DNA from: an uncultured Gemmatimonadaceae bacterium
GTDB lineage: Bacteria > Gemmatimonadota > Gemmatimonadetes > Gemmatimonadales > Gemmatimonadaceae
DNA length: 64,000 nt
NCBI GenBank assembly: GCA_963751275.1
Contig: CAVVTZ010000002.1
Location: 32,001 to 96,000, forward strand
Direction: 5' to 3'
The position numbers and the translations under genes are program-made. Under the pieces are notes generated by a model. It had not been told where the DNA came from and made no database searches. It saw only the letters and a list, made by a program, of their open reading frames with translations. Within the stretch, counting starts at the first letter, position 1, and the number at the start of each line of letters is the position of its first letter. Positions 27,810 through 43,137 of this stretch are shown one piece after another.

Positions 27810-27860
27810 GGCACTATCCTCCAATGAGAATGAAAGAAGGGAATTGCTGGGATTCCCGGG

Positions 27861-28634
27861 TCAGCTGCCGCTCGCCGGGGCGAGCGGCGTGATCGCATCC
27901 TCGAACACGACCGTCTCCACCGGCGCGCCCTTGCCGCCGACGATCACGATCGTGTAGGCCTTGCCGGCCTCGAGGTGCAGCGGCTTGAGGATCATCGGCT
28001 TCACGCTCTTCGCGTTCTGCCGCACGTCGAGCGTGATGGTCGAAGGGGCGAGGTCCTTGTAGCCGGCCTCGTCGGTGAAATCGACGCCCTTGAACAGCGC
28101 CGTCTTCTCGCCGAGGATGGCGAAGTCGGCGTTCTTCACGGTGGGCGATGCGTTGATCACGCGCAGCCGGGCCTTGCCCGAATCCGGTTCCACGTCGTCC
28201 CGCACGACCTTGAGCTGCGTGCCCCCCTTGCCGTCGGGCAGCACGAGCGCGGTGTAGCGGATGCCATCGGCCATCATCTCGTGGTCGTCGGCGAGCACGT
28301 TGTTCTGGTCGGCGGTGAGCACGCGCAGCGCGATGAGATTGTCCTTCACCTCCGCGTACGGCGTGACCTGCTTGTACAGCACATCGCTGAACAGTGTGCG
28401 GTCGTCGCCGGTCAGCACGACGTGGTGATCGGACGGCAGCGCATTGACGACGCGCACCATCGACTTGCCGGCGCGCGCGGCGTCGGTGCCGGCCGGCGAG
28501 ACGGAGGCGCCGCCGTTCGCGGTGCTGACCACGGGCTGCGCGGTCTTTGCCTCACGGCACGCGGCGGCGGCCACGACGAACAGGGCGAGCGCCAGCATCC
28601 GGGTGGAATCGATCGTGTTCCGCATGGCGCTCAC
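27861..28634 (-). CDS. DUF4397-like lipoprotein
   Basis: Lipobox-like AAAC; VRVVNALP, ARLRVINASP and LEAGKAYTIVIVG. Confidence 0.85.
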   Translation of the reverse strand: MSAMRNTIDSTRMLALALFVVAAAACREAKTAQPVVSTANGGASVSPAGTDAARAGKSMVRVVNALPSDHHVVLTGDDRTLFSDVLYKQVTPYAEVKDNLIALRVLTADQNNVLADDHEMMADGIRYTALVLPDGKGGTQLKVVRDDVEPDSGKARLRVINASPTVKNADFAILGEKTALFKGVDFTDEAGYKDLAPSTITLDVRQNAKSVKPMILKPLHLEAGKAYTIVIVGGKGAPVETVVFEDAITPLAPASGS

Positions 28635-28840
28635 ATCGTCTTGACGTTGGAGCGCTCGAACTCCGCGACCTGGCGCTCGATCTCGTCGCGGCCCTCGCCG
28701 TACTTCCGCTGGAGGACGCCCACGAGCTGATCGCGTTTTCCGGCAATGCGCTCGAGGTCGTCGTCAGTGAGCTTGCCCCATTTCTCGCGCACCTTGCCCT
28801 GCATCTCCTTCCATGAGCCTTCGATCTGATTCCAATTCAT
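28631..28840 (-). CDS. csbD: CsbD family general stress protein
   Basis: MNWNQIEGSWKEMQGKVREKWGKLTDDDLERIAGKRDQLVGVLQRKYG; GGAGG RBS. Confidence 0.95.
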   Translation of the reverse strand: MNWNQIEGSWKEMQGKVREKWGKLTDDDLERIAGKRDQLVGVLQRKYGEGRDEIERQVAEFERSNVKTM

Positions 28841-28868
28841 ACACGCCTCCATTTGTTTTCGGCGAAGA

Positions 28869-28979
28869 GAAACACAAAAGGCGCGCCTGAGCGCCGCGTG
28901 TGCGGCGTTCTAGCGCGCCTTCGACTGGCAGCCCCACTTCGCTGCCCGGCAAGGCGACCCGGCCACCGACCCCCGGGCC
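28869..28979 (-). ncRNA. Candidate cis-regulatory leader RNA, copy 1 (upstream of csbD)
   Basis: RNA sense: GGCCCGG..CCGGGUC-G-CCUUGCCG-GGCAGC/GCUGCC-AGUCGAAGGCGCG...CGCGCC-UUUUGUGUUUC. Confidence 0.8.
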
Positions 28980-29002
28980 TCGGTCCTTCCTGAACTTCCT
29001 TC

Positions 29003-29029
29003 CTACCCTACGCCACACCCCACGGTTCC
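29003..29029 (-). promoter_or_regulatory. Putative alternative-sigma promoter GGAAC-N17-GGTAG
   Basis: Immediately upstream of leader copy 1; the same pattern precedes copies 3, 5 and 6. Confidence 0.45.
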
Positions 29030-29036
29030 GTTGCCG

Positions 29037-30140
29037 TCACGAGTCCAGCAAGACCGCCACCGGCTTGAGCCGGTCCACCTGGTCGCAGATCACCTTGATC
29101 ATCACGGTGAGGGGCACCGCGAGGATCGCCCCCGCCACCCCCCACATCCACGCCCAGAAGATCAGACTAACGAATACCGCCACTTTGTTGAGCGGCAACC
29201 CGCGGCCGAGTACCAGCGGCGTAACGATGTTCCCGGTGAAGGTATGGATCGTGAAATAGACCGCGCTCACGATCAAAGTCTTCTCGATCCCATCGAACGT
29301 GATCAGGCACGCGCCGCCGATCAGCACCATGCTAATGAACGCGCCCACGTACGGGATGAAATTCAGCACCGCCGCCACCGCGCCCCAGAGCGCGCCGTTC
29401 GGCAGGCCGGCGATGGCGAGCAGTCCCCACGTCGTGAAGCCAAGACCGAGACTGATCACGGTGGTCAGCCCCAGATAGCGCGCGGTCTGATGCTCCGTCT
29501 CCGCCACGGCGTGCATGATCCGCTCCTGGTCCGCCCGCTCGGCGAGGATCATCGCCACCTTGCGCTTGAAGAGCTGATCGGTGGAGGCGAGGAAGTAGGT
29601 GAGGAAGAGCACCGTGAAGAATCCGGCCAGCGCGTTCATCGTGCCGCTCGTGAAGCGGGACATCAACGCGGGATCCTGCACCGCCACCTTCATCGTCGAT
29701 CCGGTCGTCGAGCTCGCCGCGCTCGACATCTGCTCGGCGGTCTGCTGAATGGTGGTGATCGGCCGCACGAGCTTCCGGATCTTCTTCTGCAGTTCCGGCA
29801 CCGTCTCGGGCGCGCGGCTCAGCCACTCCGACGCGGGGCGCGCGAGCAAGACGCCGGCGGCGCCAAGCAGCGCGGCGCTCCCGAACACGAGCACGGCCGC
29901 GCCGACCACGACCGGCACGCCGAGCCGGCGCAGCCAGCGCACTCCGGGTCCGAAGAGCAGACTCAGGAGCACCGAGATGGCGATCGGCACGAGCAGCGCG
30001 GAGGCCCATTTGAGGATCGCGAGCGAGACGAGTACGAGCAGCGCGATCTGCGGTGAATTGCGGCGGAAGGTCTTCACGACTGGCGCGCTCACGCGATGGA
30101 CGCTCTCCCGCACCTCGAGCACGAGCGGGGCGGCGCTCAT
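29037..30140 (-). CDS. AI-2E family transporter
   Basis: LLVPIAISVLLSLLFGP, LNFIPYVG, GNIVTPLVLG and WGVAGAILAVPL. Confidence 0.92.
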   Translation of the reverse strand: MSAAPLVLEVRESVHRVSAPVVKTFRRNSPQIALLVLVSLAILKWASALLVPIAISVLLSLLFGPGVRWLRRLGVPVVVGAAVLVFGSAALLGAAGVLLARPASEWLSRAPETVPELQKKIRKLVRPITTIQQTAEQMSSAASSTTGSTMKVAVQDPALMSRFTSGTMNALAGFFTVLFLTYFLASTDQLFKRKVAMILAERADQERIMHAVAETEHQTARYLGLTTVISLGLGFTTWGLLAIAGLPNGALWGAVAAVLNFIPYVGAFISMVLIGGACLITFDGIEKTLIVSAVYFTIHTFTGNIVTPLVLGRGLPLNKVAVFVSLIFWAWMWGVAGAILAVPLTVMIKVICDQVDRLKPVAVLLDS

Positions 30141-30400
30141 GCCGCGGCCCGGTCCTGCGGCACGCGCGCGCTGCGCGACGTGCGCATCCGGCGGAGCACT
30201 TCTCGCGCGCGGCGCACATGGCGCCTCCGCTCGATGAGCACATCCACGGCGAGCGCGAGCACGAGTCCGATGCCCACGAGCGCCATGACGCCGTAGAGCA
30301 TCGCGCGCCCGCTGCCCACCGGCGCCGTGTTGATCCGCGAGATCCCGAGCGCCGCCGCGGCGGCGCCTTGCAGGATGAGTACGACGGCTGAGAATCGCAT
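30137..30400 (-). CDS. Small hypothetical membrane protein
   Basis: GAGGT RBS, two hydrophobic segments, stop overlaps the AI-2E start. Confidence 0.6.
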   Translation of the reverse strand: MRFSAVVLILQGAAAAALGISRINTAPVGSGRAMLYGVMALVGIGLVLALAVDVLIERRRHVRRAREVLRRMRTSRSARVPQDRAAA

Positions 30401-30405
30401 GGCGA

Positions 30406-30597
30406 TCACCTCGCGCGTTCAGTGGCGGACTTGTTCACCCAGAGGGGAAGGCCGGCCGGCAGCGCGCGCGCCGCGGCGATGAGCAGGCGCCGCACTTCCG
30501 ACGCCGGGTTCTTCGCTTCGCGCCGGCGCTCGAAGGCCTGCTGGGACATTGATTCGGTTGCCGATCCACCGCATTCGGACTGCTGCTCTTGGTTCAT
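30406..30597 (-). CDS. Small hypothetical protein
   Basis: GAGGAG RBS before MNQEQQSECGG; lies directly downstream of leader copy 2. Confidence 0.5.
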   Translation of the reverse strand: MNQEQQSECGGSATESMSQQAFERRREAKNPASEVRRLLIAAARALPAGLPLWVNKSATERAR

Positions 30598-30623
30598 GGC
30601 TCGCTCCTCGCGTGCGGGTGCCG

Positions 30624-30732
30624 GAAGAACGAAGGCGCGTCGGCCGCCACCGCTAGGTTGGCGACCAACGCGCCTTCGACTGACGAAGCCTTCGCTTCGC
30701 CCGACAAGGGGGACCGGCCATTGCACCGGCCC
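30624..30732 (-). ncRNA. Candidate cis-regulatory leader RNA, copy 2
   Basis: RNA sense: GGGCCGG..CCGGUCC-C-CCUUGUCG-GGCGAAGC/GCUUCGUC-AGUCGAAGGCGCG...CGCGCC-UUCGUUCUUC. Confidence 0.78.
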
Positions 30733-30775
30733 TTCCGTCATCTATGACTGCACCGCCCCGTAGGGCCGAAATTGT

Positions 30776-30925
30776 CTACCGCGACTTCGTGCTGCGCTTG
30801 CGGTTCGACTTGCCTGCCTTCTGAAGGGCGATCGCCACCGCCTGCTTCTGCGGCTTCCCCTCCTTCATCTCGGTCTTGATGTTCTCCGAGACGGTCTCTC
30901 GTGACGATCCTTTCTTGAGCGGCAT
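30776..30925 (-). CDS. 49-aa basic protein (DUF6496-like), absent from the ORF track
   Basis: Manual translation [59 protein letters not shown]. Confidence 0.85.
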
Positions 30926-30946
30926 GGTCTCCTCCACCACGATCAC

Positions 30947-31048
30947 GGAAAACAAAAAAGGCGCGAGAGATCGTTGTGGCTGATCTCTTCGCGCCTTCGA
31001 CTCGCGAGTCTCTTCACTCGCCCGCCAAGGTGGCCGCGTGAGCGGCCT
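30947..31048 (-). ncRNA. Candidate cis-regulatory leader RNA, copy 3
   Basis: RNA sense: GGCCGC-UCAC-GCGGCC-A-CCUUGGCG-GGCGAG/CUCGCG-AGUCGAAGGCGCG...CGCGCC-UUUUUUGUUUU. Confidence 0.82.
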
Positions 31049-31056
31049 ATGTCGTA

Positions 31057-31082
31057 CTACCTGTCACCAAGCTACGTGTTCC
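31057..31082 (-). promoter_or_regulatory. Putative alternative-sigma promoter GGAAC-N16-GGTAG
   Basis: About 8 nt upstream of leader copy 3. Confidence 0.45.
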
Positions 31083-31173
31083 CGGGATTCGCGCAAGGGG
31101 GGCCCGGGATGGAATCCATGTGACGCATTGCACAAACGCGCGGCCCCGGGCACGCGGCGTGTTCATGTCTATA

Positions 31174-31318
31174 GAAGGACAACAAACCGCTTTGACAGGA
31201 TTGACGGGATGAACGGGACAACTGCAGGATGACTGCCCTGCGCCTGGCGCGCAGGGCAGTCATCCTGCAGTTGTCCCGTTCATCCCGTCAATCCTGTCAA
31301 AGCGGTTTGTTGTCCTTC
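31174..31318. repeat. Family A palindrome with perfect arms
   Basis: GAAGGACAACAAACCGCTTTGACAGGATTGACGGGATGAACGGGACAACTGCAGGATGACTGCCCTGCGC, loop, then its exact reverse complement. Confidence 0.95.
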
Positions 31319-32046
31319 ATACGTGCTCAAGGAGGAGCTCGAGTTTGTGCCGCAGATCCCCCAGCGCCTTCGACTTGAACGCCCCCTTGGTCTCTTCCAG
31401 CACCGTGACCGTCTCCTTCACCGCCATCTGGAATTGCGCGCCGCGAGGGCAGTTCATCAGCTGGCACGGATGCTGGTCTACGGTCTGCTTCGACAGCGCC
31501 TTCCCCAGCTGTTCCAGGTCGGTGAGCGACCCCATCACGTTCCGCAGCGTGAGCGTGAGGAAGAGGTCCACCGGCACGGCGCCCGCGCCGCCGCCGAGCT
31601 TGGAGATGTGCTGGAACTCGTCGCGCCACGAACTGAGCCGCTCCTCCGTCTTCCGCATCGCCTGAAAGGACCGGAAACGCTCGACCGCGCCCCGCACCCG
31701 CTCGAGCAGCTCGGAGAACGCCACCGGCTTCGTGAGATAGGCCACGACGGGCAGATCGATGCACGCGATCGCGCTGCGCACGGATGGGAATCCCGTGAGG
31801 ATGATGATCGGCAAGCCCCCGGCCTGCGCGGCGATCTGCCGCACCAGCGCCAGATCCGAATTCCCGGGCATTCTCGAGATCGGTGATCAGCAGATCGAAA
31901 TCGCCGGCGCCCGCGGCCCGCAGCGCCTCCGCGCCGTCGCGCACCGTCACGCACTCGTAACCCTCGCCGCGCAACAGATCGGCGGTCGCGCTCGCGAACG
32001 TCGGTTCATCGTCGGCCAGCAGGATCTTCCCACGGATATCGGTCAC
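31317..32046 (-). CDS. Response regulator (receiver domain plus unrecognised helical output domain); frameshift near 31872
   Basis: ILLADDE, DLLITDLE/MPG, IIILTG and YLTKPV; the C-terminus contains HPCQLMNCPRG. Confidence 0.88.
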
Positions 32047-34937
32047 AGGCTCTCCTCCTTCATTGAATGCAATGGCAGCGTGACGACGAATTCGCATCCT
32101 GCGCCGTCCACGTCGTGTACCGCGATGGTGCCGCCGGACGCCGTCACCGTGCGGCGGACGAGCGCGAGGCCCAGCCCCATGCCGCCGGTGCGGAGGCGCC
32201 CGCTCTTGGTGCTGTAGAACGGCTCGAAGATCCGCTCCCGCGATTCCGGCGGGATCCCCGCGCCGTGATCGCGCACCAGCAGTTCGAAGTGCTCGTCGCG
32301 CAGCAGCGTCTGCACCACCACGATGCCGCCGGCGGGCGATGCTTCGATCGCGTTCTGCACCAGGTTGTACACGATCTGACGCAGCAGCGCCGCCGGGATC
32401 GGCAGCACAGTCGGGCCGGGCCCCAGCACCACCTGGACCTTCACGCTGGTCGCGCGGTTCACCTGCTCCAGGAACGCCACGGCATTGCCGATCACCGTGG
32501 CCGGCGACGCGCCCGCGTGTCCGTCGTGCTCGGGACGGTACGTCTCGTACAACTGCCGCGTGACCGCCGCGATGCGCGCGACCTCGCGCTCGATCGCGCC
32601 CACGTACTTATAGTGCGGATGCGTCTCGGGGATCGCGCCCTTGATGAGCAGGAACGAGTTCTGGATCCCGGCGAGCGGGTTGTTGATCTCGTGCGCCACC
32701 TGCGCCGCCACGCGCCCCATGGTCGTGAGCGTCTCCACTTCGCGCAGCGTCGCCTCGGCGCGGCGCCGCGCCGACAGATCGCGGGCTTCGAGCAGGAGCT
32801 GCGTGTCCTCCTCGGTCTCGCCGGTGAGCGGCTTCACCGCGATCTCGAGATGCATCTCGGCGCCGCTCGCGAGCGTGAACTCCTGCTCGTACCGGCGCGT
32901 GAGTCCCCGCACCGCCGCCGACACCGCGGCGCGCAACCGCTCCTGCGCCGGCACATTCCCGTTCCACCAGAGCGTGTTCCATACCAGCCGGCCGCGAACG
33001 TCGGCGTCCGCAATGCCGAACTCGCCGAGCGCGTGCTGGTTCACCTCCACCACCGCGCCCGCGCGGTCGAGCAGCAACTGGTACTGGAATCCGCTGTCGA
33101 AGATCTCGCGGAATCGCTGCTCCGCCGCTTCCCGCGCCTGCGCCGCCGAGCGGGCGACGGTCACGTCCGCCTTGATCCCCACCATGCGCGCCGGATGACC
33201 CGACGCCGTGCGGTCCACCACGCGCCCGCGGTCCACGATCGTATGCCATTTTCCGTCGCGCGCGAGCACACGATATTCGGCATCGTAGCTCGGGCGCGCG
33301 CCGGAGAGATGATCCGCGATCTCCTGGGCGAGCCGCGGCTGGTCATCGGGGTGCACGAGCGCCATCCACGCGTCACGGATCGGTGGCACCGCGTCGGGAT
33401 CGTAGCCCAGATACCGCCAGATGCCCGGGCTGTGCACCGACGCGCCGGTGAGCAGGTCCCATTCCCACACCCCGTCCGTCATGCGCTCGAGCGCCTCGCT
33501 GATGCGGGAGCGCTCGGCCGCCCGCGCGCCGCGCAGCGCATGCTGCGCCAGGAGCACGCTCACCGGCACGAGTGCGCTCACCGCGAATCCCATGAGCAGC
33601 ACGAGCAGCGGCAGGCTGGACCGCACGCCTTCGATCGTGCTGCGCGTGGGCCACGCCGACAATGTGAGATGGACCTCGCCGAGCTGCAGGTCGAGCCATT
33701 GCAGCCACTCGCGCGTGCGGTCGGAGTCCGGCGACGGCCCGGCGAGCCGGCCGGCGCGGCCGATGATGGCGTACCGGAACCCGCGCGATGTGTCGGGGAT
33801 CACATCCTGAAAGAGACGCGCGGTGCGCATTACGCCGATCATCGAGCCGGTGCAGATGGTCCGGATGCACGCCGGCGCGAGGATGACGAAGCGCTTGCTC
33901 GCCGAATCCAGCGGCAGATACGCCATGCTGTCGGGCAGCCGGTGGTTCGCGTTCACATAGGCGATCGTCACGGCGTCCGCGCCGACACCGGCCAGCGAGC
34001 TCGACGCGGCGGTGTCGATCACGCCAAGCGCGGAGATCCAGCCCGCGCCCTCGAGTCCCGGCACATCGCGCTGCAGCGCGCTCACATCGCGGCGCTGTTC
34101 ATCCAATGTCGCGCCGTTCGCGCGCCACTCGCTCGCCCGGTGCAGCGATCGCGCGGTGCTCACCGCCTCGCGCACGAGCACGCGCCTCCGTTCCTCCCCC
34201 GCCTGGCGCGTGAGCGCGAGGATTTGGTCGTTCTCGCGCGCGGTCAGGCCACGCCAGAGCATGAACACGGTCACGACGCCGGCGATGCCGAGTGCCGCCG
34301 GCAGCCACGCCGCCGAGTCGCCAGAGAGCAGGCCCCGTGTCCAGACGAGCGCCACGTAGCAGCTGCCGATCAGGAAGCAGGACAGGAGCATCTGCATGGA
34401 AGGGCCGGCGCCGAGCATGTCCATCGTGGTCTTCGTGATGCCGGTGGCCCGCGCGATGAGCAGCGTCGCCGCGAGCGCGAGCAGGATGAAGCCCGCGATC
34501 CCCACCGATGCATCTTCCGGCAGCAGGCGCCGGCGCGCGGAGACGATGATCAGCGGTGCCGACGCCGCGAGGATGAGCACCGCCGACGAGAACGACATCA
34601 CGTCGCGCGAAATGGGCAGCGACATCAGTTGCGCGCCGATGCTCAGGACCGCCGCGCTCGCCGCGATCGCCGCCGACAGGAACGCCGACCGGTAGCGGAG
34701 CTGCAGGAACTGCCAGAGCGCGAATCCCACCGCGACGAGCGCGATGGACCCGAGGAAGGGCAGCCGCGGCCAGCCGATGAGAGGCTCGCCGAGGCGCTCG
34801 AGCCCGGGCAACTCGCCCAGGAGGCCGGCGAGCCCCGCCACACCGGACAGCACGGCGAACACGTACCCCGACCGGTACGCCACGAAGGCGAACGGTCCGG
34901 TGAGTTCCGGCCGGCTCGGACTTCCGGATTCCCTCAT
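32043..34937 (-). CDS. Membrane-bound PAS/PAC sensor histidine kinase
   Basis: Multiple TM segments, an extracytoplasmic region, two PAS domains (DGVWEWD..VHPDD), H-box AHEINNPL, NLVQNA, DHGAGI, FEPFYSTK and GMGLGL. Confidence 0.95.
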   Translation of the reverse strand: MRESGSPSRPELTGPFAFVAYRSGYVFAVLSGVAGLAGLLGELPGLERLGEPLIGWPRLPFLGSIALVAVGFALWQFLQLRYRSAFLSAAIAASAAVLSIGAQLMSLPISRDVMSFSSAVLILAASAPLIIVSARRRLLPEDASVGIAGFILLALAATLLIARATGITKTTMDMLGAGPSMQMLLSCFLIGSCYVALVWTRGLLSGDSAAWLPAALGIAGVVTVFMLWRGLTARENDQILALTRQAGEERRRVLVREAVSTARSLHRASEWRANGATLDEQRRDVSALQRDVPGLEGAGWISALGVIDTAASSSLAGVGADAVTIAYVNANHRLPDSMAYLPLDSASKRFVILAPACIRTICTGSMIGVMRTARLFQDVIPDTSRGFRYAIIGRAGRLAGPSPDSDRTREWLQWLDLQLGEVHLTLSAWPTRSTIEGVRSSLPLLVLLMGFAVSALVPVSVLLAQHALRGARAAERSRISEALERMTDGVWEWDLLTGASVHSPGIWRYLGYDPDAVPPIRDAWMALVHPDDQPRLAQEIADHLSGARPSYDAEYRVLARDGKWHTIVDRGRVVDRTASGHPARMVGIKADVTVARSAAQAREAAEQRFREIFDSGFQYQLLLDRAGAVVEVNQHALGEFGIADADVRGRLVWNTLWWNGNVPAQERLRAAVSAAVRGLTRRYEQEFTLASGAEMHLEIAVKPLTGETEEDTQLLLEARDLSARRRAEATLREVETLTTMGRVAAQVAHEINNPLAGIQNSFLLIKGAIPETHPHYKYVGAIEREVARIAAVTRQLYETYRPEHDGHAGASPATVIGNAVAFLEQVNRATSVKVQVVLGPGPTVLPIPAALLRQIVYNLVQNAIEASPAGGIVVVQTLLRDEHFELLVRDHGAGIPPESRERIFEPFYSTKSGRLRTGGMGLGLALVRRTVTASGGTIAVHDVDGAGCEFVVTLPLHSMKEESL

Positions 34938-34953
34938 GGCACCGTGGTCGGAT

Positions 34954-35037
34954 GAACGAAAAAGGCACGAACGCCCCGCCGTCTTGGCGCAGGGATCCGT
35001 GCCTTCGACTTGCGGAGCATTTCTCCGCCCGCCAAGA
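34954..35037 (-). ncRNA. Candidate cis-regulatory leader RNA, copy 4 (upstream of the histidine kinase)
   Basis: RNA sense: UCUUGGCG-GGCGGAG/CUCCGCA-AGUCGAAGGCACG...CGUGCC-UUUUUCGUUC; compensatory GGCACG/CGUGCC pair. Confidence 0.8.
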
Positions 35038-35055
35038 CCGAGTGACTATACGCTC

Positions 35056-35070
35056 TACCTTAGTAAGGTA
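35056..35070. promoter_or_regulatory. AT-rich palindrome TACCTTA-G-TAAGGTA in the divergent promoter region
   Basis: Perfect 7-bp inverted repeat between leader copies 4 and 5. Confidence 0.45.
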
Positions 35071-35123
35071 TATCGCGCGCCGGCGGACCGCGCAAGCCGT
35101 CGCGAACGGCGCTCTTGCGCCAT

Positions 35124-35150
35124 GGAACAACGCGGCCTACGTTGCGATAG
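35124..35150 (+). promoter_or_regulatory. Putative alternative-sigma promoter GGAAC-N17-GATAG
   Basis: About 11 nt upstream of leader copy 5. Confidence 0.45.
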
Positions 35151-35161
35151 AAGACGATGAC

Positions 35162-35266
35162 GCCCTGTTTCGCGGGGCACCTTGGCGGACGAGCGTTGTG
35201 CGGCTCGCCAGTCGAAGGCGCGATGACGGCTCCCACTGTGGAGCGGTCCCGCGCCTTTTTTGTTTC
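35162..35266 (+). ncRNA. Candidate cis-regulatory leader RNA, copy 5 (upstream of the DUF1328 operon)
   Basis: GCCCUG-UUUCG-CGGGGC-A-CCUUGGCG-GACGAGC/GCUCGCC-AGUCGAAGGCGCG...CGCGCC-UUUUUUGUUUC. Confidence 0.82.
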
Positions 35267-35314
35267 CCGGCGGCGCCGCGCCGCCGGTCCATTCCGATCC
35301 GAAGGAGGTGCGTC

Positions 35315-35494
35315 ATGTTGCGTTGGGCCCTTGGATTCCTCGTGCTGGCGCTGATCGCCGCGTTCTTCGGCTTCGGCGGCATCGCCGCCGCATCCGCCGG
35401 CATTGCGAAGACGCTGTTCTTCCTCTTCCTTCTCATCTTCGCCGTCACGCTCATCCTCGGCCTCATGGCCGGGAACAAGATCGCGAGCCCATGA
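35315..35494 (+). CDS. DUF1328 (YtjA-like) small membrane protein
   Basis: MLRWALGFLVLALIAAFFGFGGIAAASAGIAKTLFFLFL; AGGAGG RBS. Confidence 0.93.
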   Translation: MLRWALGFLVLALIAAFFGFGGIAAASAGIAKTLFFLFLLIFAVTLILGLMAGNKIASP

Positions 35495-35507
35495 CGGTCA
35501 CGCACCG

Positions 35508-35936
35508 ATGAGCCCCGGCGCGCCACGCAGCGCGTTCTCCACCGGGTTCCGCCGCTTCGCGGAACGCACGGAGGTGTTGCTTGGCTCGCCGTGGGCCTTC
35601 GGCGCGGCGCTCGCTTCGGTCGCGATCTGGGGCGCACTGGGACCGCGGTACCACTACTCGGAGACCTGGCAGATCGTGATCAACACCGGCACGACGATCA
35701 TCACCTTCCTGATGGTCTTCCTGCTGCAGAACACGCAGATGCGCAGTTCCACCGCGCTGCATCTCAAGATCGACGAGCTGCTGCGCGCCATCCAGGAGGC
35801 ACGAACGGGCCTCGTCGGCCTGGAGAAGATGCCCGACGAACGGCTGGAAGAAGTGGCCACCGAGTTCCAGCAGATCTCGGACGCAGCGCAAGACACCCGC
35901 ACCCCCGCACCAATCACCCGCATTCAGGGAGCATGA
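35508..35936 (+). CDS. Low-affinity iron permease family protein
   Basis: GSPWAF, SETWQIVINTGTTIITFLMVFLLQNTQ and ALHLKIDELLRA. Confidence 0.92.
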   Translation: MSPGAPRSAFSTGFRRFAERTEVLLGSPWAFGAALASVAIWGALGPRYHYSETWQIVINTGTTIITFLMVFLLQNTQMRSSTALHLKIDELLRAIQEARTGLVGLEKMPDERLEEVATEFQQISDAAQDTRTPAPITRIQGA

Positions 35937-36322
35937 CCATGGCACACGACAACGCACTCTCCGGCGCGATGGAAACCACCCGCGACACCCTCACCGACGC
36001 CACCGCGAAGGTGCAGGACAAGGTGTCGGACCTCGGCCGCAAGGCGTCGAGCAAGTTCGAAGCCGGCCGGCTCGCCACCGCCGACAAGCTCGAGAGCGCG
36101 GCGGAAACGCTGCACGATCGCGTGAACCGCTTTGGCGAGATCGGCCACGACACGGCCGACAAGGTGGACGCCACCGCGCGATACATCCGGAAGAACGGCG
36201 CCAAGGAGATGGCGTCGGATGTGAGTGAACTCGTGAAAGCGCATCCCGGCAAGGCATTGCTCGTGGCGGCCGCTGTCGGCTTCCTCGCCGCCCGCGCGTT
36301 CCGCAGCAGCGCCAGTGAGTGA
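35933..36322 (+). CDS. ElaB/YqjD/DUF883-like membrane-anchored protein
   Basis: Helical body with a C-terminal VKAHPGKALLVAAAVGFLAAR anchor. Confidence 0.8.
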   Translation: MTMAHDNALSGAMETTRDTLTDATAKVQDKVSDLGRKASSKFEAGRLATADKLESAAETLHDRVNRFGEIGHDTADKVDATARYIRKNGAKEMASDVSELVKAHPGKALLVAAAVGFLAARAFRSSASE

Positions 36323-36713
36323 GCCCGCGGTCGTGCGCGGCGGTACGCGGGGCGGCGATGGCCGCACCGTGGCCGCCGTCGTGCACGACATCTTCGGCAA
36401 CGTCGACCGCATGATGCGGTCGGAGGTGCGCCTCGCCATCGAAGAGGCGCGCGAGGAGATCGGAACGGCGCGCGACTCCGCCGCGTTCTTCGCCGCTGGC
36501 GCGGCGTTGTGCGGCTTCGCCATCGCGTTCGTATTGGTCGCTGCGTTCCTGTATCTCGCGACGGTGATCGCGCCGTGGCTCGCCGCGCTCGCCGTCGCGA
36601 TCGTGGCGGCCGGGGCGTCCACCGGCGTGATCCTCACCGGCCTCAAGCGCATCCGGCGCGCGCGATCGTCGCGCGCGCTGCAGCTGGTCTCTCACACGGA
36701 GCACGCACCATGA
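36315..36713 (+). CDS. Holin-like (YqjE-like / phage holin family) membrane protein
   Basis: MMRSEVRLAIEE followed by two TM segments (PWLAALAVA). Confidence 0.78.
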   Translation: MSEPAVVRGGTRGGDGRTVAAVVHDIFGNVDRMMRSEVRLAIEEAREEIGTARDSAAFFAAGAALCGFAIAFVLVAAFLYLATVIAPWLAALAVAIVAAGASTGVILTGLKRIRRARSSRALQLVSHTEHAP

Positions 36714-37093
36714 TCACGCAAACGCACCGCCTCGAACGCGAGATCGCCTCCGAGCAGGACGCGCTGGGCGAGAACCTGCGCGAGCTGGAAGTCCGCGTGC
36801 GCACGGCGGCGGACTGGCGCGAGCAGGTCCAGCGCCGCCCGTGGGTCATGGTGGGGCTCGCCTTCGGCGGCGGCGTGGTGCTGTCGGCACTCGCGGGACC
36901 AGGCCCGCGCCGCCGGCGCCGAACGCGCCGCGCGGAACTCGCCGGTGACGCGCCGCGGGAGAGCGCGCCACCCACCGATCCGGACGACACCTGGCGCCGG
37001 TTCAAGGGCGCGCTGCTCGCCGCGGCAGCGGTGGAGGCCGCCAACCTGGTCAGTCAAGTACTGCCCAGCTTTCGTGATGAGTTCGAGACGTGA
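36710..37093 (+). CDS. DUF3618-like protein
   Basis: LEREIASEQDALGENLRELE...DWREQVQRRPWVMVGLAFGGG; ATGA overlap with the upstream gene. Confidence 0.7.
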   Translation: MITQTHRLEREIASEQDALGENLRELEVRVRTAADWREQVQRRPWVMVGLAFGGGVVLSALAGPGPRRRRRTRRAELAGDAPRESAPPTDPDDTWRRFKGALLAAAAVEAANLVSQVLPSFRDEFET

Positions 37094-37148
37094 CTCAGAG
37101 CTGATCCGACGGGAGGGATGAGAACAACCGGCAAGGGAGGATGCTCAC

Positions 37149-37577
37149 ATGCCGATCATGACGCATCGCAAGCGGGACATCGCGCTGTCGCAGCTGGAGA
37201 CGGCGCTGCGATTGCACGATGAACTCGCGCACGACTACGCCGTGATCAACCTCGCCGGCGCGGCCGAGCGGATCCTGGGTGGCATGCTCGCCGATCAGAA
37301 CGTGTCCGGCCGCTTCCCGAAGGTCCGGCGATCCACGCGCCAGCTGCAGCGCTGGCTGCGCCGCGTCTCGCGCCGCTCCAGCGGGCGCCAGCGCGCGCTC
37401 ACGGCCGCGCTGCGCGCGGTGGACGATCATGCGCCCGGTGATCCGCTGGTGGTGGTGTTCGACGCGCGCGCACAGGCCGCCGAGCTGCTCCACCGCGCCA
37501 TCGTGCAGTTCTGGGCGCTCGAGCGACTGGCGACGCCGCGCATGGTCGCGTTCTCGGCGGCCCGCGCCGCGACCTGA
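37149..37577 (+). CDS. Hypothetical protein
   Basis: GGAGG RBS; KRDIALSQLETALRL..AVINLAGAAERILG; no family assigned. Confidence 0.7.
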   Translation: MPIMTHRKRDIALSQLETALRLHDELAHDYAVINLAGAAERILGGMLADQNVSGRFPKVRRSTRQLQRWLRRVSRRSSGRQRALTAALRAVDDHAPGDPLVVVFDARAQAAELLHRAIVQFWALERLATPRMVAFSAARAAT

Positions 37578-37584
37578 GCGCGGC

Positions 37585-38787
37585 TCAGCGGTCGAAGGCG
37601 AACATCGCTGCGTCGCGCTCGGCGCGCCCGGTGTGCACCGCCGTGATCAGGCGCGCGGCGATCATGCTGAACGTGATGCCGTTGCCGCCATATCCGAGCG
37701 CGAAATAGGCGTTCGGGCAGCGCGCGTTCGGGCCGATGAACGGAAGGCCGTCTGCGCTCTCGCCGAAGGTGCCCGCCCACGCGTAGGCGGCGTCGAGCGC
37801 GATCTCCGGGAAACATCGGGCGAAATTCTTGTGGAGCGCGGCCGCCTTCGCCGCGAGCTTCGCATCGCGAAGACGGGCGTTCTTCCACGGGATGTCCGCG
37901 CCGCCGATCATCGCGCGATGATCGGCGGTGGTGCGGAAGTAGTGGTAGGGTCGCGCCGACTCCCAGATGAGCGCCCGGTCGGGCCACCCGGCGTAGCTCG
38001 TGAGCGGTTCGCTCACCATGGCATACGTGCTGTGCAAGGCGCCCACCCGCCGCCCGAGGAATCGCTCGGAGTCGTACCCCGTGGCGAAGACGATCCGGTC
38101 GGCGACGACCTTCGGCCCGTCCGCGGTGTGCAGCCGCATGCGCCGCCCCGCCGCCTCGAAGCGCACCATCTCCGTGCGCTCGTGCACGCGTGCGCCGTGC
38201 ACGATCGCGTGCGCCAGCAGCCGGTGCGTGAAGCGCACGGGATCGATCTGCGCGTCGCCCTGCGACACGATCGCGCCGGCCGCCGGGAGCGTGGACCGCT
38301 TCGCGATCGCGGCGCGGTCGAGATACTCCACGTCGAAGCCGTGCGCCTCGAGCGACCGGAAGACGCGCTGGAGCCGCGGCAGATCCCAGCGGCGCCGCGC
38401 GAGGTACCAGCTGTCGCGGCGGGCGAAATCGCACGGGTCGCCGATGTCGAGCGTGAGCCGCCGGATCGACTCGACCGCGTCGAGCCCGAGCCGCAACGCG
38501 CGCACGGCGTTCGCTTCCCCGACTCGCGCGATCAGGTCGGGCAGCTCGACGTCCACTTCGTATTGGAGCAGGCCGGTGCTCGCGGCGGTGCTCGCCGCGG
38601 CGATGTCGCCGCACTCGAGCACGACGACATCCACCCCGGCATTGGCCAATTGGTGCGCCACGAGCGCGCCCGTGATCCCGCCCCCGACGACGGCCACTTC
38701 GCAGCGTTCGTCGCGCTTGAGCGCGGGATACGCCGCGAGGATGCCGTTCTTGAGCAGCCAGAAGGGCTGCCCCGAGCGCAGCTTCAT
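37585..38787 (-). CDS. FAD-dependent oxidoreductase (DAO/PuuB-like)
   Basis: VAVVGGGITGA, STAASTGLLQYE, VFATGY, DGLPFIG and LGYGGNGITF. Confidence 0.9.
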   Translation of the reverse strand: MKLRSGQPFWLLKNGILAAYPALKRDERCEVAVVGGGITGALVAHQLANAGVDVVVLECGDIAAASTAASTGLLQYEVDVELPDLIARVGEANAVRALRLGLDAVESIRRLTLDIGDPCDFARRDSWYLARRRWDLPRLQRVFRSLEAHGFDVEYLDRAAIAKRSTLPAAGAIVSQGDAQIDPVRFTHRLLAHAIVHGARVHERTEMVRFEAAGRRMRLHTADGPKVVADRIVFATGYDSERFLGRRVGALHSTYAMVSEPLTSYAGWPDRALIWESARPYHYFRTTADHRAMIGGADIPWKNARLRDAKLAAKAAALHKNFARCFPEIALDAAYAWAGTFGESADGLPFIGPNARCPNAYFALGYGGNGITFSMIAARLITAVHTGRAERDAAMFAFDR

Positions 38788-38797
38788 CGCCGCCGGA

Positions 38798-39292
38798 TCA
38801 GCCCGGCTCGGTGATCCGCGGCGGGTCGATGCCGAGCGCGGTGGCGAGATCCTCGAGATGCTCCTGCTCATCCTTGAGGATCTCGCGGATGTGCTCGCTC
38901 ATCGCGTACTCGCCGAGCGCCTCGCACTGCTTCACGCGCTTGCGGTATTCCACGATCGTCACGCGCTCGTTCTCGAGGTCGAAGCGCAGCATGTCGTCCG
39001 CCTTGCCCGACGTCTTCACGGCTTTCGCGACCACCGGCGGATCGCCGCCCAGGTAGTCGATCTGTTTGGCGATGATGATCGCGTGCCGCAATTCCTCGCC
39101 CGCGTGCTTCTCGAGCTCGGCGGCGATCGCCATGTACGCGGCGCCCTTGAGCACCTGCGAGTAGACGACGTAGGCGATGATCGCCTGGTACTCGCGCGAG
39201 AGATCCTCGCCGAGCGCGGCGATGAGATCGGCACGCGTCACGGCGGGGGAGGCGGGGGCGCTGGCGATAGGGGGCGGGACTTTCTTGGCCAT
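38798..39292 (-). CDS. Ferritin-like (bacterioferritin family) protein
   Basis: EYQAIIAY, EELRHA, IDYLGG.P, DLENE and DEQEH di-iron motifs. Confidence 0.9.
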   Translation of the reverse strand: MAKKVPPPIASAPASPAVTRADLIAALGEDLSREYQAIIAYVVYSQVLKGAAYMAIAAELEKHAGEELRHAIIIAKQIDYLGGDPPVVAKAVKTSGKADDMLRFDLENERVTIVEYRKRVKQCEALGEYAMSEHIREILKDEQEHLEDLATALGIDPPRITEPG

Positions 39293-39321
39293 GGTTCGAG
39301 GTCCGTTGGTTGGTGGTGGGA

Positions 39322-41232
39322 TCAGTCGGCGGCGCCGAGCCGGCGCCGGACCGCGGGAGTGACGGCGCGCCGCGCGGCGGCGAAGCCGCGCCACGGATCG
39401 GTCTGCTGGCGCTCGATGCGCTCCGGCACATTGCGCACGTTGAAATGATCGAAGCGCCGGTCCTCGTCGAGCTCGTTCCAGTGGATGGGCGTGGCCACGG
39501 GCGCGCCGGCGCGCGCGCGCACGGAATAGGGCGCGACGGCCGTCGCGCCTTCCGCGTTGCGCAGATGGTCCACGAAGATCTTTCCCGTGCGCCGCGACTT
39601 GCTCGCCGTGGCGGTGTACCGGTCGGGCGCCGCGTGGACCATTGCGTCGGCCACGGCGCGGGTGAGCGCCTTGGCGTCCTTCCAGGTGATCGTCGCGCGG
39701 ATCGGCACGACCACGTGCAGCCCTTTGCCGCCCGTCGTCTTGAGGAAGGCCTTGAGCCCGGCCGACTCGAAGGTCTCGCGGAGCGCGAGCACGGCGGTCA
39801 CGAGATCGCGCCAGGAGATGCGGTCGTCGGGATCGAGGTCCATGATGAGGATATCGGGGCGCGCGAGCTGCGGCGCGCGCGAGCCCCAGGGATGCAGCTC
39901 CACCACACCCCATTGCACCAGCGCGGCGAGCGCCTTCGCGGAGCCGGCGCTCGCATAGAGCGCGGCGCCGCTGCTCTCCTGCACGCGCACCCGCTGCACC
40001 GCTTCATCGATGGACTGGTCCGCGTGTTTCTGGTAGAAGCATTTCTCGCCGATGCCATTGGGGCACCGGAGCAGGCTGAGCGGCCGGTGGCGGAGATGCG
40101 GGAGCATGACGGGCGCGATGCGCGCGTAGTACTGCGCCAGCTCGAGCTTGGTCGGGCCATCCGGCGGGAAGAGTTGTTTGTCCGGGTGCGAGATCCGGAT
40201 GCCCGACACGGATCCGGCGGCCGCGGCGGCGCGGGCGGCGCTCGCGCGGCCGTTCTTCACGGCCACCGGCCGCTCGCGCACCACCTCCGATGCTTTCTTG
40301 TCCACGCGTAGCCCCTTGAAGGAGGGATGACGCAGCGCGCCGTCCGCGCTCCACTCGGTGAAGTCCACTTCGGCCACGAGGTCGGGCCGCACCCAATGCA
40401 CGCCCTTCGCCATCGCGCCGCGCGGCGGATCCGTGAAGGGCGTGCGCGCCCGAGCGCGGCGCTTGAGCTTGCCCGTGATCTCGTCGAGCGTGGCGGCGTC
40501 GAAGCCGGTGCCGACGCGGCCCGCATAGCGGAGTTTGCCGCGATCGTACACGCCGAGCAGGAGCGCGCCGAATCCCGCGCGGCCCCCCTGCGGATCGGTG
40601 TAACCGCCCACCACCAGCTCCTGGCGCCGCGTGCATTTCACCTTCACCCAGTCGCGCGACCGCTCGCCGCTGCGGTAGGGCGAATCCGCGCGCTTCGACA
40701 TCGCGCCCTCCAGGGAGAGCGCGCACGCCTGCTTGAAGAACTCGGCGCCGGAACCGCCCGCCTCCGGCCCCACGCGCACGTGCTTGGTGCCCCGCCCCAC
40801 GATCTTGTGCAGGCGCTTCTTCCGCTCGGTGAGCGGCAGCGCACGGATGTCTTCGCCATCCACATACATGACGTCGAACAGGATGAGCGTGAGCTGCGCG
40901 GCGCGCGGCGACGCGATGGCGTTCTGGAGCGCCTGGAAATCCGAGCGCCCCTTCGCGTCCAGCGCGACCAGCTCGCCGTCGAACCAGCCATTGGCCACGC
41001 GCAGCCGCGCGAGATCGGCGGCGATCGCGCCGAGCTGCGCCGTCCACTCTTTGCCGTTCCGCGAGAAGATGCGCGCGTCGCCATCCTCCACGCGGCAGAG
41101 CATGCGATAGCCATCGTACTTGATCTCGTGCAGCCAGCCGGCGCCCGCCGGCGCGCTCTTCACGAGCGTCGCGAGCATCGGCTGCATCGCCGCCGGAATG
41201 GGGCGGCGCGACACCTTCAGGGTCGCGCTCAT
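39322..41232 (-). CDS. ligD: NHEJ DNA ligase D (ligase plus polymerase domains)
   Basis: EIKYDGYR, DGELV, EGAMSKR, GRVGTGF, LRHPSFKGLR; polymerase motifs DLDP, KTTGGKGLH and APYSVRAR. Confidence 0.95.
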   Translation of the reverse strand: MSATLKVSRRPIPAAMQPMLATLVKSAPAGAGWLHEIKYDGYRMLCRVEDGDARIFSRNGKEWTAQLGAIAADLARLRVANGWFDGELVALDAKGRSDFQALQNAIASPRAAQLTLILFDVMYVDGEDIRALPLTERKKRLHKIVGRGTKHVRVGPEAGGSGAEFFKQACALSLEGAMSKRADSPYRSGERSRDWVKVKCTRRQELVVGGYTDPQGGRAGFGALLLGVYDRGKLRYAGRVGTGFDAATLDEITGKLKRRARARTPFTDPPRGAMAKGVHWVRPDLVAEVDFTEWSADGALRHPSFKGLRVDKKASEVVRERPVAVKNGRASAARAAAAAGSVSGIRISHPDKQLFPPDGPTKLELAQYYARIAPVMLPHLRHRPLSLLRCPNGIGEKCFYQKHADQSIDEAVQRVRVQESSGAALYASAGSAKALAALVQWGVVELHPWGSRAPQLARPDILIMDLDPDDRISWRDLVTAVLALRETFESAGLKAFLKTTGGKGLHVVVPIRATITWKDAKALTRAVADAMVHAAPDRYTATASKSRRTGKIFVDHLRNAEGATAVAPYSVRARAGAPVATPIHWNELDEDRRFDHFNVRNVPERIERQQTDPWRGFAAARRAVTPAVRRRLGAAD

Positions 41233-42077
41233 GCGTGCTTGCGGCGGCGCGCCGGTGTGTGGCGTGCCGCCGTCGCCGGCTTCTCGGCGAGACTGCGCTT
41301 GAGCAGCGCCGTGAGATCGAGCACCTTGCCGCCGCCGGTCTCGCGCGCGGGCTTCTCCTCGGGCTCGGCGATGCGCTCGGTGTCGCCCCGCTTGATCTTC
41401 TTCTTGATCAGCGCGAGCAGGTCGCGGTGGTACGTGTCCACGAAGCCCTTGGGATCCCACTCGGCGGTGAGATCGTCCACCAGGCGCTTCGCGAGCTGGA
41501 GGTCCTTCGCCGACACGGCGGCGGCTTTCATGCCGGCGGGGGGGAGCTCGAGTCCCTTCGCGCCGCGCAGCTCGCCGGCGTAGCGCATGATGACGAGCAT
41601 GAGTGCCGGGCCGTTCACCGTGATCGCCGCGAGATGCTGGGTGGTGTGCAGGACGATCTGCGCGATCGCGATGAGGCCGGTGTCGCGGAGCGTCTCACGC
41701 AGGAGCGCATAACTTTTCGAGCCGCGCTTGCCGGGCACGAGGTAGTACGGCGTCTCGTAGAACCAGACGGGCACGTCGCCGGCCTTCACGAAGGTGTGGA
41801 TGTCGATCGTCTGCGTGGCCTTCACGTTCGCCTTCTGGAAATCCGCGTCGGTGAGCACCACGTACCGGCCGTCCTCGTACTCGTGCCCCTTCACGATGTC
41901 GCCCCACGAGACTTCCTTCCCGGTGCTCTTGTTGTAGCGCTTGTAGCCCACGGGCGACAAGTCGTGCTTGTCGAGCATCGTGAACGAGAAGTCGCGGCGG
42001 TCCTCCGCCGGCCGGAGTTCCACCGGAACACTGACCAGCCCGAAGGAGAGCGAGCCGCTCCACAGTGCGCGTGCCAT
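41229..42077 (-). CDS. ku: NHEJ Ku protein
   Basis: ALWSGSLSFGLVSVPV, IVKGHE, FYETPYYL and VLDLTALLKRSL. Confidence 0.96.
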   Translation of the reverse strand: MARALWSGSLSFGLVSVPVELRPAEDRRDFSFTMLDKHDLSPVGYKRYNKSTGKEVSWGDIVKGHEYEDGRYVVLTDADFQKANVKATQTIDIHTFVKAGDVPVWFYETPYYLVPGKRGSKSYALLRETLRDTGLIAIAQIVLHTTQHLAAITVNGPALMLVIMRYAGELRGAKGLELPPAGMKAAAVSAKDLQLAKRLVDDLTAEWDPKGFVDTYHRDLLALIKKKIKRGDTERIAEPEEKPARETGGGKVLDLTALLKRSLAEKPATAARHTPARRRKHA

Positions 42078-42104
42078 GATCGGTCCTCCATCGCGTACAA
42101 AGCG

Positions 42105-42205
42105 GGAACGAAAAAGGCGCGAGAGATCGATGGGTCCGATCTCCTCGCGCCTTCGACTCGCGGTCCGCTTGCTCCGCGCGTCAAGGTGGCCGCTGGAGCG
42201 GCCGC
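42105..42205 (-). ncRNA. Candidate cis-regulatory leader RNA, copy 6 (upstream of ku-ligD)
   Basis: RNA sense: GGCCGC-UCCA-GCGGCC-A-CCUUGACG-CGCGG/CCGCG-AGUCGAAGGCGCG...CGCGCC-UUUUUCGUUCC. Confidence 0.82.
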
Positions 42206-42264
42206 TGTGCTACATTGGAATATTGTGCTCCCGCTCCGGCGCCGCAAGGCGCCGGGATGCAGTC

Positions 42265-42289
42265 CTATCTACTAACGCCCCTCAGTTCC
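42265..42289 (-). promoter_or_regulatory. Putative alternative-sigma promoter GGAAC-N15-GATAG
   Basis: About 60 nt upstream of leader copy 6; the spacer is shorter than in the other three. Confidence 0.3.
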
Positions 42290-42316
42290 AAACGCGTACG
42301 ACCAACGACTGTTTCT

Positions 42317-42862
42317 CTATTTCGTGATATCGATCGCCGTCGACTCGTTGTAGCTCAGGATCATCTGGTCGCCGACCTTCGCGCTGTTGAACGCCGTGAC
42401 GCCCGGATTGACCTTGAACGAGAACGATTTCCCCGCCGAATCGGTGAATCCGATCGTGCGCGTCGCCATGTCCACGGACGTGATCTTGCACGTCACGTTG
42501 ACGACCTTCACCTCATCGAGATCGGGCAGTCCGGCGGGCGTGATCGTCACCGTTGGCGGCGGCGCCGCTGCCGACGCATCGCCCGGCCGCCGCAGATACA
42601 GCACCACCGACTCCACGAAGCGCACGGTCACGGTGTCGCCCACCTGCACCTTGTACAGGTTCGCCGCCTTCGCCGGGATCGTGAACTGGTGGAGCGCACC
42701 ATGCGGTCCCTGCACGATGAGTTGATGCGCCTGATAATCATTGCTCAACACGATCCCTCTCCACGCGGACACCGGACTCGCGACCTTCGTCTTCGGCGCC
42801 TGCGCCCCGACCGCGCTCGCGATCAGGACCGCTCCCAGAATTCCTGTGATGACACGACGCAT
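42317..42862 (-). CDS. Exported hypothetical protein; paralogue of 26210..26818
   Basis: Signal peptide; W.GIVL, GP.G..H.FT, V..GD.VTV.FVES, VTI.P.GLP and KVGDQ are shared with the 26.2 kb gene. Confidence 0.8.
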   Translation of the reverse strand: MRRVITGILGAVLIASAVGAQAPKTKVASPVSAWRGIVLSNDYQAHQLIVQGPHGALHQFTIPAKAANLYKVQVGDTVTVRFVESVVLYLRRPGDASAAAPPPTVTITPAGLPDLDEVKVVNVTCKITSVDMATRTIGFTDSAGKSFSFKVNPGVTAFNSAKVGDQMILSYNESTAIDITK

Positions 42863-42927: not shown

Positions 42928-43137
42928 TCAGCCCTCGTATTTGAACGACACCTTCACCTTCGCCCGGTACGCCTCGACCTTCCCATCCTTCATCGTCATG
43001 TCCATCTGAACGACTTCAGCCACCCGCAGGCCGCGGATCGTCTTCGCCGCGCGCTTCACCGCCGCGGCCGCCGCCTTCTCCCAACTCTCGGTGCTCGTGC
43101 CCACCAGCTCGATGACCTTGTAGACGCTCTCCGCCAT
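42928..43137 (-). CDS. Dodecin family protein
   Basis: SVYKVIELVGTSTESWEKAA..AV..AAKTIRGL..AEV...YRAKVKVSF. Confidence 0.93.
   Translation of the reverse strand: MAESVYKVIELVGTSTESWEKAAAAAVKRAAKTIRGLRVAEVVQMDMTMKDGKVEAYRAKVKVSFKYEG

Follow-up and report, generated by a model that had tools for sequence, protein, structure and literature searches.

A leader RNA family in Gemmatimonadota that adjoins a response regulator with an uncatalogued output domain, and its candidate role in two-component antitermination

The described systems closest to the one considered here are the ANTAR regulators EutV/EutW, AmiR and NasR/NasT, which are two-component regulators encoded beside their targets, with several leaders per regulon. 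The target RNA of ANTAR consists of two hairpins with hexaloops in which A1 and G4 are conserved, and the 3' hairpin is mutually exclusive with an intrinsic terminator. A 2025 review (PMC12591593) centres on CAT and ANTAR as RNA-binding antiterminator domains, ANTAR being the one carried by response regulators, and in AmiR and NasR the receiver is followed by a long helix and then by a helical C-terminal domain. We analysed 64 kb of DNA from an uncultured Gemmatimonadaceae bacterium (contig CAVVTZ010000002.1, positions 32,001 to 96,000; hereafter the window, meaning this whole stretch), in which six copies of a leader RNA of about 100 nt precede genes of a stress island, and found that this RNA co-occurs with, and often adjoins, a response regulator whose C-terminal domain is uncatalogued. 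Our reading, to which we assign a probability of roughly 0.6, is that the two form an ANTAR-like two-component antitermination system from new parts, with the regulator acting on the leader.

With the ANTAR systems this locus shares the two-component regulator encoded beside its target, the several leaders per regulon, the receiver, long helix and helical C-terminal domain (here in a predicted model), and the two-stem-loop leader whose 3' stem-loop is mutually exclusive with an intrinsic terminator. It differs in that the regulator has no ANTAR domain (PF03861 matched none of 77 members at E<=0.01) and that the leader has no dual hexaloop signature: P1 is dispensable, being absent in copy 4 and others, loops range over 4-13 nt, and those of P2 (5-13 nt) have no fixed A or G positions. 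The conserved letters stand in a helix (CCUUGnCG/AGUCGAAGG) and not in loops, and the regulon is made up of genes for stress and signalling, where ANTAR regulons concern nitrogen or ethanolamine. Having neither ANTAR domain nor dual hexaloop, the system would therefore be ANTAR-like in its working and not a member.

The RAT leaders of BglG, SacY and LicT offer another likeness, a single imperfect hairpin, with features of internal loop and bulge, that overlaps the 5' side of the terminator by a few nucleotides and that the protein is thought to stabilise. By this general description we set RAT apart, since the control proposed here is a phosphorelay and not the sugar phosphotransferase system, and Pfam found no CAT/PRD protein among the 23 island proteins scanned. 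ON riboswitches are similar in their 5' leader location, their tandem copies and an aptamer-like helix that excludes the terminator; the leader described here differs in having no evident ligand pocket and in its strict linkage to a regulator protein. Finally, the YjbJ motif RNA is a Streptococcus candidate that likewise has two hairpins, the second a terminator, and precedes a csbD-like gene; its 40 representatives are all from Streptococcus (PMC11109978), and the present leaders, which match no Rfam model, are probably distinct from it.

Six leaders and two competing folds

An earlier note on this DNA had placed six leaders in sense orientation before csbD, a small open reading frame (ORF) heading an AI-2E operon, a 49-aa ORF, a histidine kinase, DUF1328 and ku, each ending about 17-49 nt before a start codon. 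Sequence, alignment and covariance-model bounds confirm the places and the orientation, Pfam and ORF calls confirm the genes, and the start codons lie 13-46 nt past the model match. The six copies, with bounds as given by the model, are as follows.

28867-28975, minus strand: leader copy 1, before csbD, with the start codon 26 nt downstream (83.9 bits)
30621-30730, minus strand: leader copy 2, before the operon of a 63-aa ORF, a 90-aa ORF and an AI-2E transporter (78.7 bits)
30947-31051, minus strand: leader copy 3, before the 49-aa ORF and downstream of the response-regulator gene, a conserved synteny (95.3 bits)
34951-35058 (core 34954-35037), minus strand: leader copy 4, without P1, before the histidine kinase/response regulator operon (71 bits)
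35159-35268, plus strand: leader copy 5, before DUF1328 and the subsequent small ORFs (78.3 bits)
42103-42207, minus strand: leader copy 6, before ku-ligD (89.3 bits)

Copy 1 illustrates the layout, which runs from P1 through CCUUGCCG, P2, AGUCGAAGGCGCG and the terminator to the U-tract. The alignment of the six copies has 121 columns, with CTTG.CG and AGTCGAAGGC.CG invariant and a terminator end of CG.GCCTT, and in it the absence of P1 from copy 4 and the compensatory GGCACG/CGUGCC change in the same copy, both reported in the earlier note, are plainly seen. All six RNAs form P2 and a strong terminator hairpin with U-rich sequence after it, and all but copy 4 also form P1; in every copy the minimum-energy fold ends in AAGGCRCG...CGYGCCUU and then U-rich runs, as expected for an intrinsic terminator. 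Five of the six fold better than their shuffles (z -3.2 to -6.3), copy 1 being the exception (z -1.6).

Exact copies of the decamer AGTCGAAGGC number seven in the window, one in each of the six leaders and one at 31366-31375 on the minus strand; we rejected this seventh occurrence as a leader, as it sits in the coding frame of the regulator and is a chance match. Allowing up to one mismatch raises the number to 15, where 5.35 would be expected, and none of 100 shuffles reached 15. We also considered whether the conserved boxes could be a promoter. The spacing from CCTTG to GTCGAA is 23-26 nt in the six copies, the intervening stretch covaries as a hairpin, and the transcript would begin inside the terminator, and on these grounds that interpretation was rejected.

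The helices were examined in a family set of 118 copies at E<=5e-6 (132 rows minus 14 weaker ones, several of which have no P2). In this set covariation is seen in P1, in P2, in a 3-bp GnC/GUC helix and in the terminator. Structure cells are paired in 87.9% of cases against 70.0% in column shuffles, none of 500 shuffles reaching any observed measure, and pairing falls to 33-51% when partners are slid by 1-3 columns; these figures lean towards the model helices because the alignments were fitted to the covariance model, which favours P1, P2 and the terminator. The four CCUU:AAGG pairs are outside the model and therefore constitute an independent test.

These antiterminator pairs showed 19 double changes in the 118 copies, arising from few lineages when counted by genera (roughly 4 in the case of pair 37-94, about 6 in that of pair 38-93) and accompanied by 20 unpaired cells. 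Pair 37-94 is U-A in 102 copies, with 7 double changes (5 C-G, 2 A-U), 2 single changes and 7 unpaired cells; pair 38-93 is U-A in 91, with 12 double changes (6 C-G, 5 G-C, 1 G.U), 2 single changes and 13 unpaired cells, 10 of them G.A. In the six rows in which A93 has become C, position 38 is G in five, and in four of these five the terminator-side U159 is still mismatched. Pair 39-90 changes from G-C to A-U in 8 rows, and in carriers from metagenomes, described below, it is G-C in 30 rows and U-A in 12 of 50; CCUU and GAAGG are nearly invariant in these distant sequences. G.U pairs outnumber A.C pairs (211 vs 91 and 98 vs 23), as expected for sense-strand RNA. Three unpaired nucleotides are conserved, namely G43 (117/118), A84 (115/118) and the bulged G92 (118/118), and columns 158-167 are mostly U.

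Folding gave a consistent picture. Five of the six window copies have CCUU:AAGG in the minimum-energy fold of the nascent RNA, taken up to the 3' terminator strand, and the complete leader favours the terminator by 5.8-10.1 kcal/mol; in the antiterminator state CCUU lies between the remaining hairpin and the U-tract. The pairing of CCUUGnC with GUC-G-AAGG that had been suggested from six copies thus has the support of covariation in 118 homologues and of nascent-RNA folding, and covariation and fold energies agree that it and the terminator are mutually exclusive. An antiterminator that forms first, and is then displaced unless held, would therefore make the element an ON switch by design.

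Distribution of the RNA and its linkage to a response regulator

A first covariance model, built from the six window copies, found two more outside the window, giving 8 in this genome (3.1 Mb, 83% complete), and, among 61 related genomes, detected the family in 10. From 58 copies we built a second model, which matched 21 of 151 genomes drawn from across Gemmatimonadota, all in two families of one order (6/31 and 14/71); none of the 48 genomes of ten other Gemmatimonadota families matched. Seventeen of the 21 are convincing (best E 8.7e-19 to 3.6e-5) and have 1-13 copies each, frequently clustered. The other four (G116, G118, G134, G155; E 8e-5 to 7.5e-4) have terminator-like stretches and were rejected as carriers: P2 is missing from three of the weak rows (L077-L080), in the remaining one the 5' box is degenerate, and none of the four genomes has the regulator.

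The earlier note did not recognise the leader as a described RNA family, and Rfam 15 agrees: no family reaches its gathering score anywhere in the window, and a search of 28500-42600 at E<=10 leaves the leaders unmatched except for a chance 24.9-bit MIR5534 row. The full-text literature, subscription journals not covered, yielded no description of the leader RNA or of the regulator domain discussed below. The view of the leader as a six-copy element of a stress island holds insofar as the six copies are there, but the family is not confined to the island, or even to the phylum.

A same-strand ORF with a Shine-Dalgarno sequence lies within 60 nt downstream in 77 of the 118 copies and in 4 of 118 in the control (opposite) direction; the earlier note had named random orientation as a refuting outcome, and the orientation is biased. 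Tandem leaders occur at 7 loci. Upstream of most first copies there is a TTGC..-N15-18-TAnnnT-like promoter pattern (a permissive pattern, counted without shuffled control), which is absent before the second copies of tandem pairs. These observations bear on the idea that the units are a family of small trans-acting RNAs with their own promoters and terminators, upstream of genes by chance. Many copies per genome, each with a promoter-like site and a strong terminator, fit this idea, and terminated leaders can act in trans too; the orientation bias, the short and constant distances to start codons, the promoterless second tandem copies and a conserved alternative pairing that competes with the unit's own terminator all speak against it, and we regard it as highly improbable.

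Between leader copies 3 and 4 lie two genes of a two-component system.

32046-34937, minus strand: PAS histidine kinase, 964 aa, membrane (Pfam PAS_3, PAS_4, HisKA, HATPase_c)
31320-32040 (upper bound approximate), minus strand: response regulator, with a receiver and a helical C-terminal domain of ~120 aa (31320-31682), the candidate antiterminator acting in trans

The regulator gene directly follows the PAS kinase in the window, as do its intact orthologues in L089 and L090, and the kinase is likely its sensor partner. Kinase orthologues of 856-983 aa stand behind a leader in four other genomes (L088, L089, L090, L110).

The earlier note had offered two possibilities for the leader, a riboswitch or a protein-bound attenuator. 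We searched the same 151 genomes with the C-terminal domain and obtained strong matches (E<=7.6e-35) in 16, one copy each, all of them among the 17 RNA carriers; the other 134 genomes had no strong match, and two weak protein matches (about 1e-11) fell in genomes without the RNA. The carriers are related to each other, spanning eight genera, and as kin are not independent. In each of three genomes of genus g50 the sole leader lies 157-203 nt downstream of the regulator match. We then took 80 species-level loci picked by protein alone (78 of the 80 records are labelled Gemmatimonad-), 79 of which have at least 400 nt downstream: of these 79 Gemmatimonadales loci, 55 have a leader downstream of the regulator, on its strand and 69-297 nt away.

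At 50% identity the domain profile itself recovers 830 clusters, of which 353 lie at E<=1e-10; nearly all are proteins of ~245-265 aa with a receiver and this domain. Via distant homologues, with 30-39% identity to query P0209, whose own identity to the Gemmatimonadales regulator is ~31%, we picked 80 metagenome loci, 68 with enough sequence. In 43 of the 68 a leader-model match lies 30-324 nt downstream on the regulator's strand, and all 50 matches at E<=1e-4 are on that strand, in sequences spanning 34-67% GC. By these matches the RNA-regulator pairing reaches across phyla, beyond Gemmatimonadota. Behind the metagenome leaders are genes for PAS kinases, receiver proteins, MerR-/HTH-type regulators, XerC-like recombinases and unknowns, and some of these leaders precede the regulator gene itself (L220, L231, L267). 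In loci L208, L217 and L227 the gene behind the regulator-adjacent leader encodes an XerC/D-like tyrosine recombinase.

Taken together, the regulator co-occurs with and adjoins the RNA, and of the two possibilities in the earlier note the evidence favours the protein-bound one. Were the leader a riboswitch instead, a small molecule or ion such as a stress second messenger would bind the extended P2, G.A pair and bulged G included, and stabilise the antiterminator, and the regulator would be no more than a conserved regulon member. Its architecture and minimal 4-bp strand exchange do suit transcriptional ON riboswitches, as do the tandem copies, the near-invariance of CCUU and GAAGG across phyla, a heterogeneous regulon like those of second-messenger riboswitches, and the presence of leaders in G162, which has no regulator match. 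The presumed pocket, however, is short of conserved unpaired nucleotides, there being only G43, A84 and G92, the P2 loop varies from 5 to 13 nt, and no enzyme or transporter family recurs at the regulator-adjacent leaders of other phyla; nor would a riboswitch account for the regulator in 16 of 17 carriers or for the synteny in 55/79 and 43/68 loci. We therefore consider a riboswitch unlikely.

The same synteny bears on the possibility that the attenuator is flipped by another RNA-binding protein, or by temperature, ionic strength or transcription speed, the target of the regulator being DNA or a partner protein, as when an alternative sigma factor is controlled by partner switching. General stress regulators of other phyla do use partner switching, GGAAC-N18-TAGAA-like boxes in part of the regulon could be extracytoplasmic function (ECF)-type sigma sites, and binding of the RNA by the regulator is our inference. 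Yet the regulator and leader are in tight synteny across phyla, as is usual for a regulator beside its site, the core of the adjacent leader is kept in other phyla despite different downstream genes, and no other candidate protein recurs in the island. This alternative seems to us a little less probable even than a riboswitch.

The output domain and a proposed mechanism

If the regulator acts on the leader, its C-terminal domain would be expected to be the part that does so. In 77 diverse members Pfam found Response_reg in every one and no other domain, and in NCBIfam the window copy of the domain is unmatched and three full-length members match in the receiver region only; the domain profile had no match among PDB sequences at E<=10. 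None of the three sources gives the regulator a DNA-binding domain or any output domain already described. An AlphaFold2 model computed with the 77-sequence alignment (pLDDT 90, pTM 0.78) places after the receiver a long helix (109-151) and a helical bundle (158-184, 193-196, 200-218, 225-241). Whole-protein fold searches (Foldseek, VIA) were filled by receiver domains, and the ESM Atlas gave no usable match for the regulator.

Two motifs of the domain are nearly invariant, CxLxxCPR, with two cysteines in C-x4-C-P-R, and a basic TKxSFKSKELGxLR helix. The first lies at residues 194-201 (P0001 numbering), or about 31440-31465 on the minus strand of the window, and provides two cysteines per monomer and four per dimer; it could bind metal or sense redox.

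It is to our minds an evenly balanced question whether this is a new RNA-binding antiterminator output domain, which would make its bearers a second class, next to ANTAR, of response regulators that act on RNA, with CCUUGnCG-P2-AGUCGAAGG of the leader as its cognate and the pair present in several phyla. In the reading that we prefer, each copy of ~100 nt would be a cis-acting 5' leader ending in an intrinsic terminator. Transcription would begin at an ordinary-looking promoter upstream of P1, and in the emerging RNA CCUUGnC would pair with GUC-G-AAGG and so lengthen P2; the resulting antiterminator helix would contain a conserved G.A apposition and one bulged G. As soon as it is made, the 3' CCUU would displace the 5' CCUU and complete the terminator stem by the U-tract, so that the default would be OFF. 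The phosphorylated regulator, probably as a dimer, would bind the extended P2 via its C-terminal domain and block the 4-bp strand exchange; with the antiterminator locked, RNA polymerase would read into the stress genes (ON). The signal would come from the PAS histidine kinase, and because the kinase/regulator operon is itself behind a leader, positive feedback would follow.

Several observations weigh against antitermination by this regulator, beginning with the limits on the pairing evidence given above (fitted alignments, unpaired cells, few lineages). G162, which is 97% complete, has 2 leaders and no regulator match, and 24 of 79 and 25 of 68 loci are without a leader in the 700 nt that follow the regulator. 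Among sequencing runs, no RNA run was listed as containing 28500-31300, and the 20 runs that did contain small shares of it were all of DNA. If the regulator were simply the most faithful member of the regulon, this could explain the co-occurrence. In this assembly, moreover, the regulator is frameshifted, one extra A near 31872 splitting the gene into two frames: the site reads CTCGAGAATGCCC here and CTCGAGATGCCC in two same-genus genomes, one of which has its own 1-nt insertion 11 nt upstream of the site. The frameshift could be an assembly error or real decay. Lastly, the match of the model to EutV (Z 20.1, 164 aligned, rmsd 5.3; TM 0.54) ties with receiver-only entries and therefore says nothing about the C-terminal fold.

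Promoters, downstream genes and the regulon

Sequence patterns point to putative sigma70-type promoters for two of the window copies.

31069-31096, minus strand: putative promoter of copy 3 (TTGCGC, 16 nt, TAGCTT)
35067-35095, minus strand: putative promoter of copy 4 (TTGCGC, 17 nt, TATACC), with the same arrangement in orthologues L043, L044 and L046

For copy 2 no sigma70-like promoter of its own was seen upstream by sequence pattern, and this copy is probably read through from copy 3. Just upstream of some leaders there are GGAAC-N18-(G/A)TAGAA-like boxes, at 28990-29020 (minus strand), 35130-35160 (plus) and 31052-31085 (minus), that is, at the csbD, DUF1328 and copy 3 leaders, and also in the relatives L014, L052, L055 and L058; their resemblance to ECF-sigma promoters suggests a second control layer. 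Many copies (for example L026-L028, L041, L020 and L057) have in addition a conserved AGCAGGRCGA-CAUAGG stretch between the -10 box and P1, perhaps the transcript's 5' end or an extension of the motif.

From the stop codon of the regulator an inverted repeat extends over 31174-31318, its 70-nt arms perfect and its centre 5 nt long, and stands between the regulator gene and the promoter of copy 3. At least six other places in the genome have diverged copies (73-83% identity), and the repeat is therefore a palindromic repeat element; it also gave rise to spurious miRNA-precursor matches in the Rfam E-value search.

The genes served by the leaders in the window, with two neighbours, are as follows.

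28634-28840, minus strand: csbD (Pfam)
27864-28634, 27498-27824 and 27169-27498: a DUF4397 gene, an unknown ORF and a BON-domain gene, after csbD (Pfam)
29040-30597, minus strand: the 63-aa ORF, the 90-aa ORF and the AI-2E family transporter (Pfam, ORF calls)
30779-30925, minus strand: the 49-aa ORF, with same-genus orthologues in L026, L027 and L028 behind the same leader
35315-35491, plus strand: DUF1328 gene (Pfam)
36315-36710, plus strand: Phage_holin_3_6 (holin-X-like) membrane protein, in the operon after DUF1328
41232-42077 and 39325-41460, minus strand: ku and ligD (Pfam)
42931-43416, minus strand: dodecin gene, upstream of ku

Across genera, genes for CsbD, DUF1328, DUF892, DUF4397, Ku, M48 peptidases and SRPBCC/AHSA1 proteins recur behind leaders, together with LuxR-type regulators, PAS kinases, a sigma-54 activator and many small unknown ORFs. 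By its gene content the regulon reads as one of general-stress type, and here the earlier proposal of an ON switch coordinating desiccation and stationary-phase genes stands in part: the stress-gene regulon holds, and the assignment to desiccation or stationary phase is a reading of gene content. CsbD, DUF892 (YciE/F-like), BON, Ku/LigD, DUF1328, M48 protease and PAS kinases recall the general stress regulons of sigma-B, EcfG/PhyR and sigma-S; the difference is that the shared element here is an RNA leader and not an alternative-sigma promoter.

What is new here is the partner protein of the leader, a response regulator with an uncatalogued domain, which probably flips the RNA. If the pairing is functional, it would be a second RNA-binding output class for two-component signalling. 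The system is small, comprising an RNA of ~100 nt, a protein of 240 aa and a kinase, and would be testable in vitro and potentially of use as an orthogonal antitermination switch. For the Gemmatimonadota, an abundant and barely studied soil phylum, it would provide a first handle on how genes of desiccation and stationary-phase type (CsbD, Ku/LigD, DUF892, BON, DUF1328) are switched on, with a regulon that can be read from the genome by RNA search.

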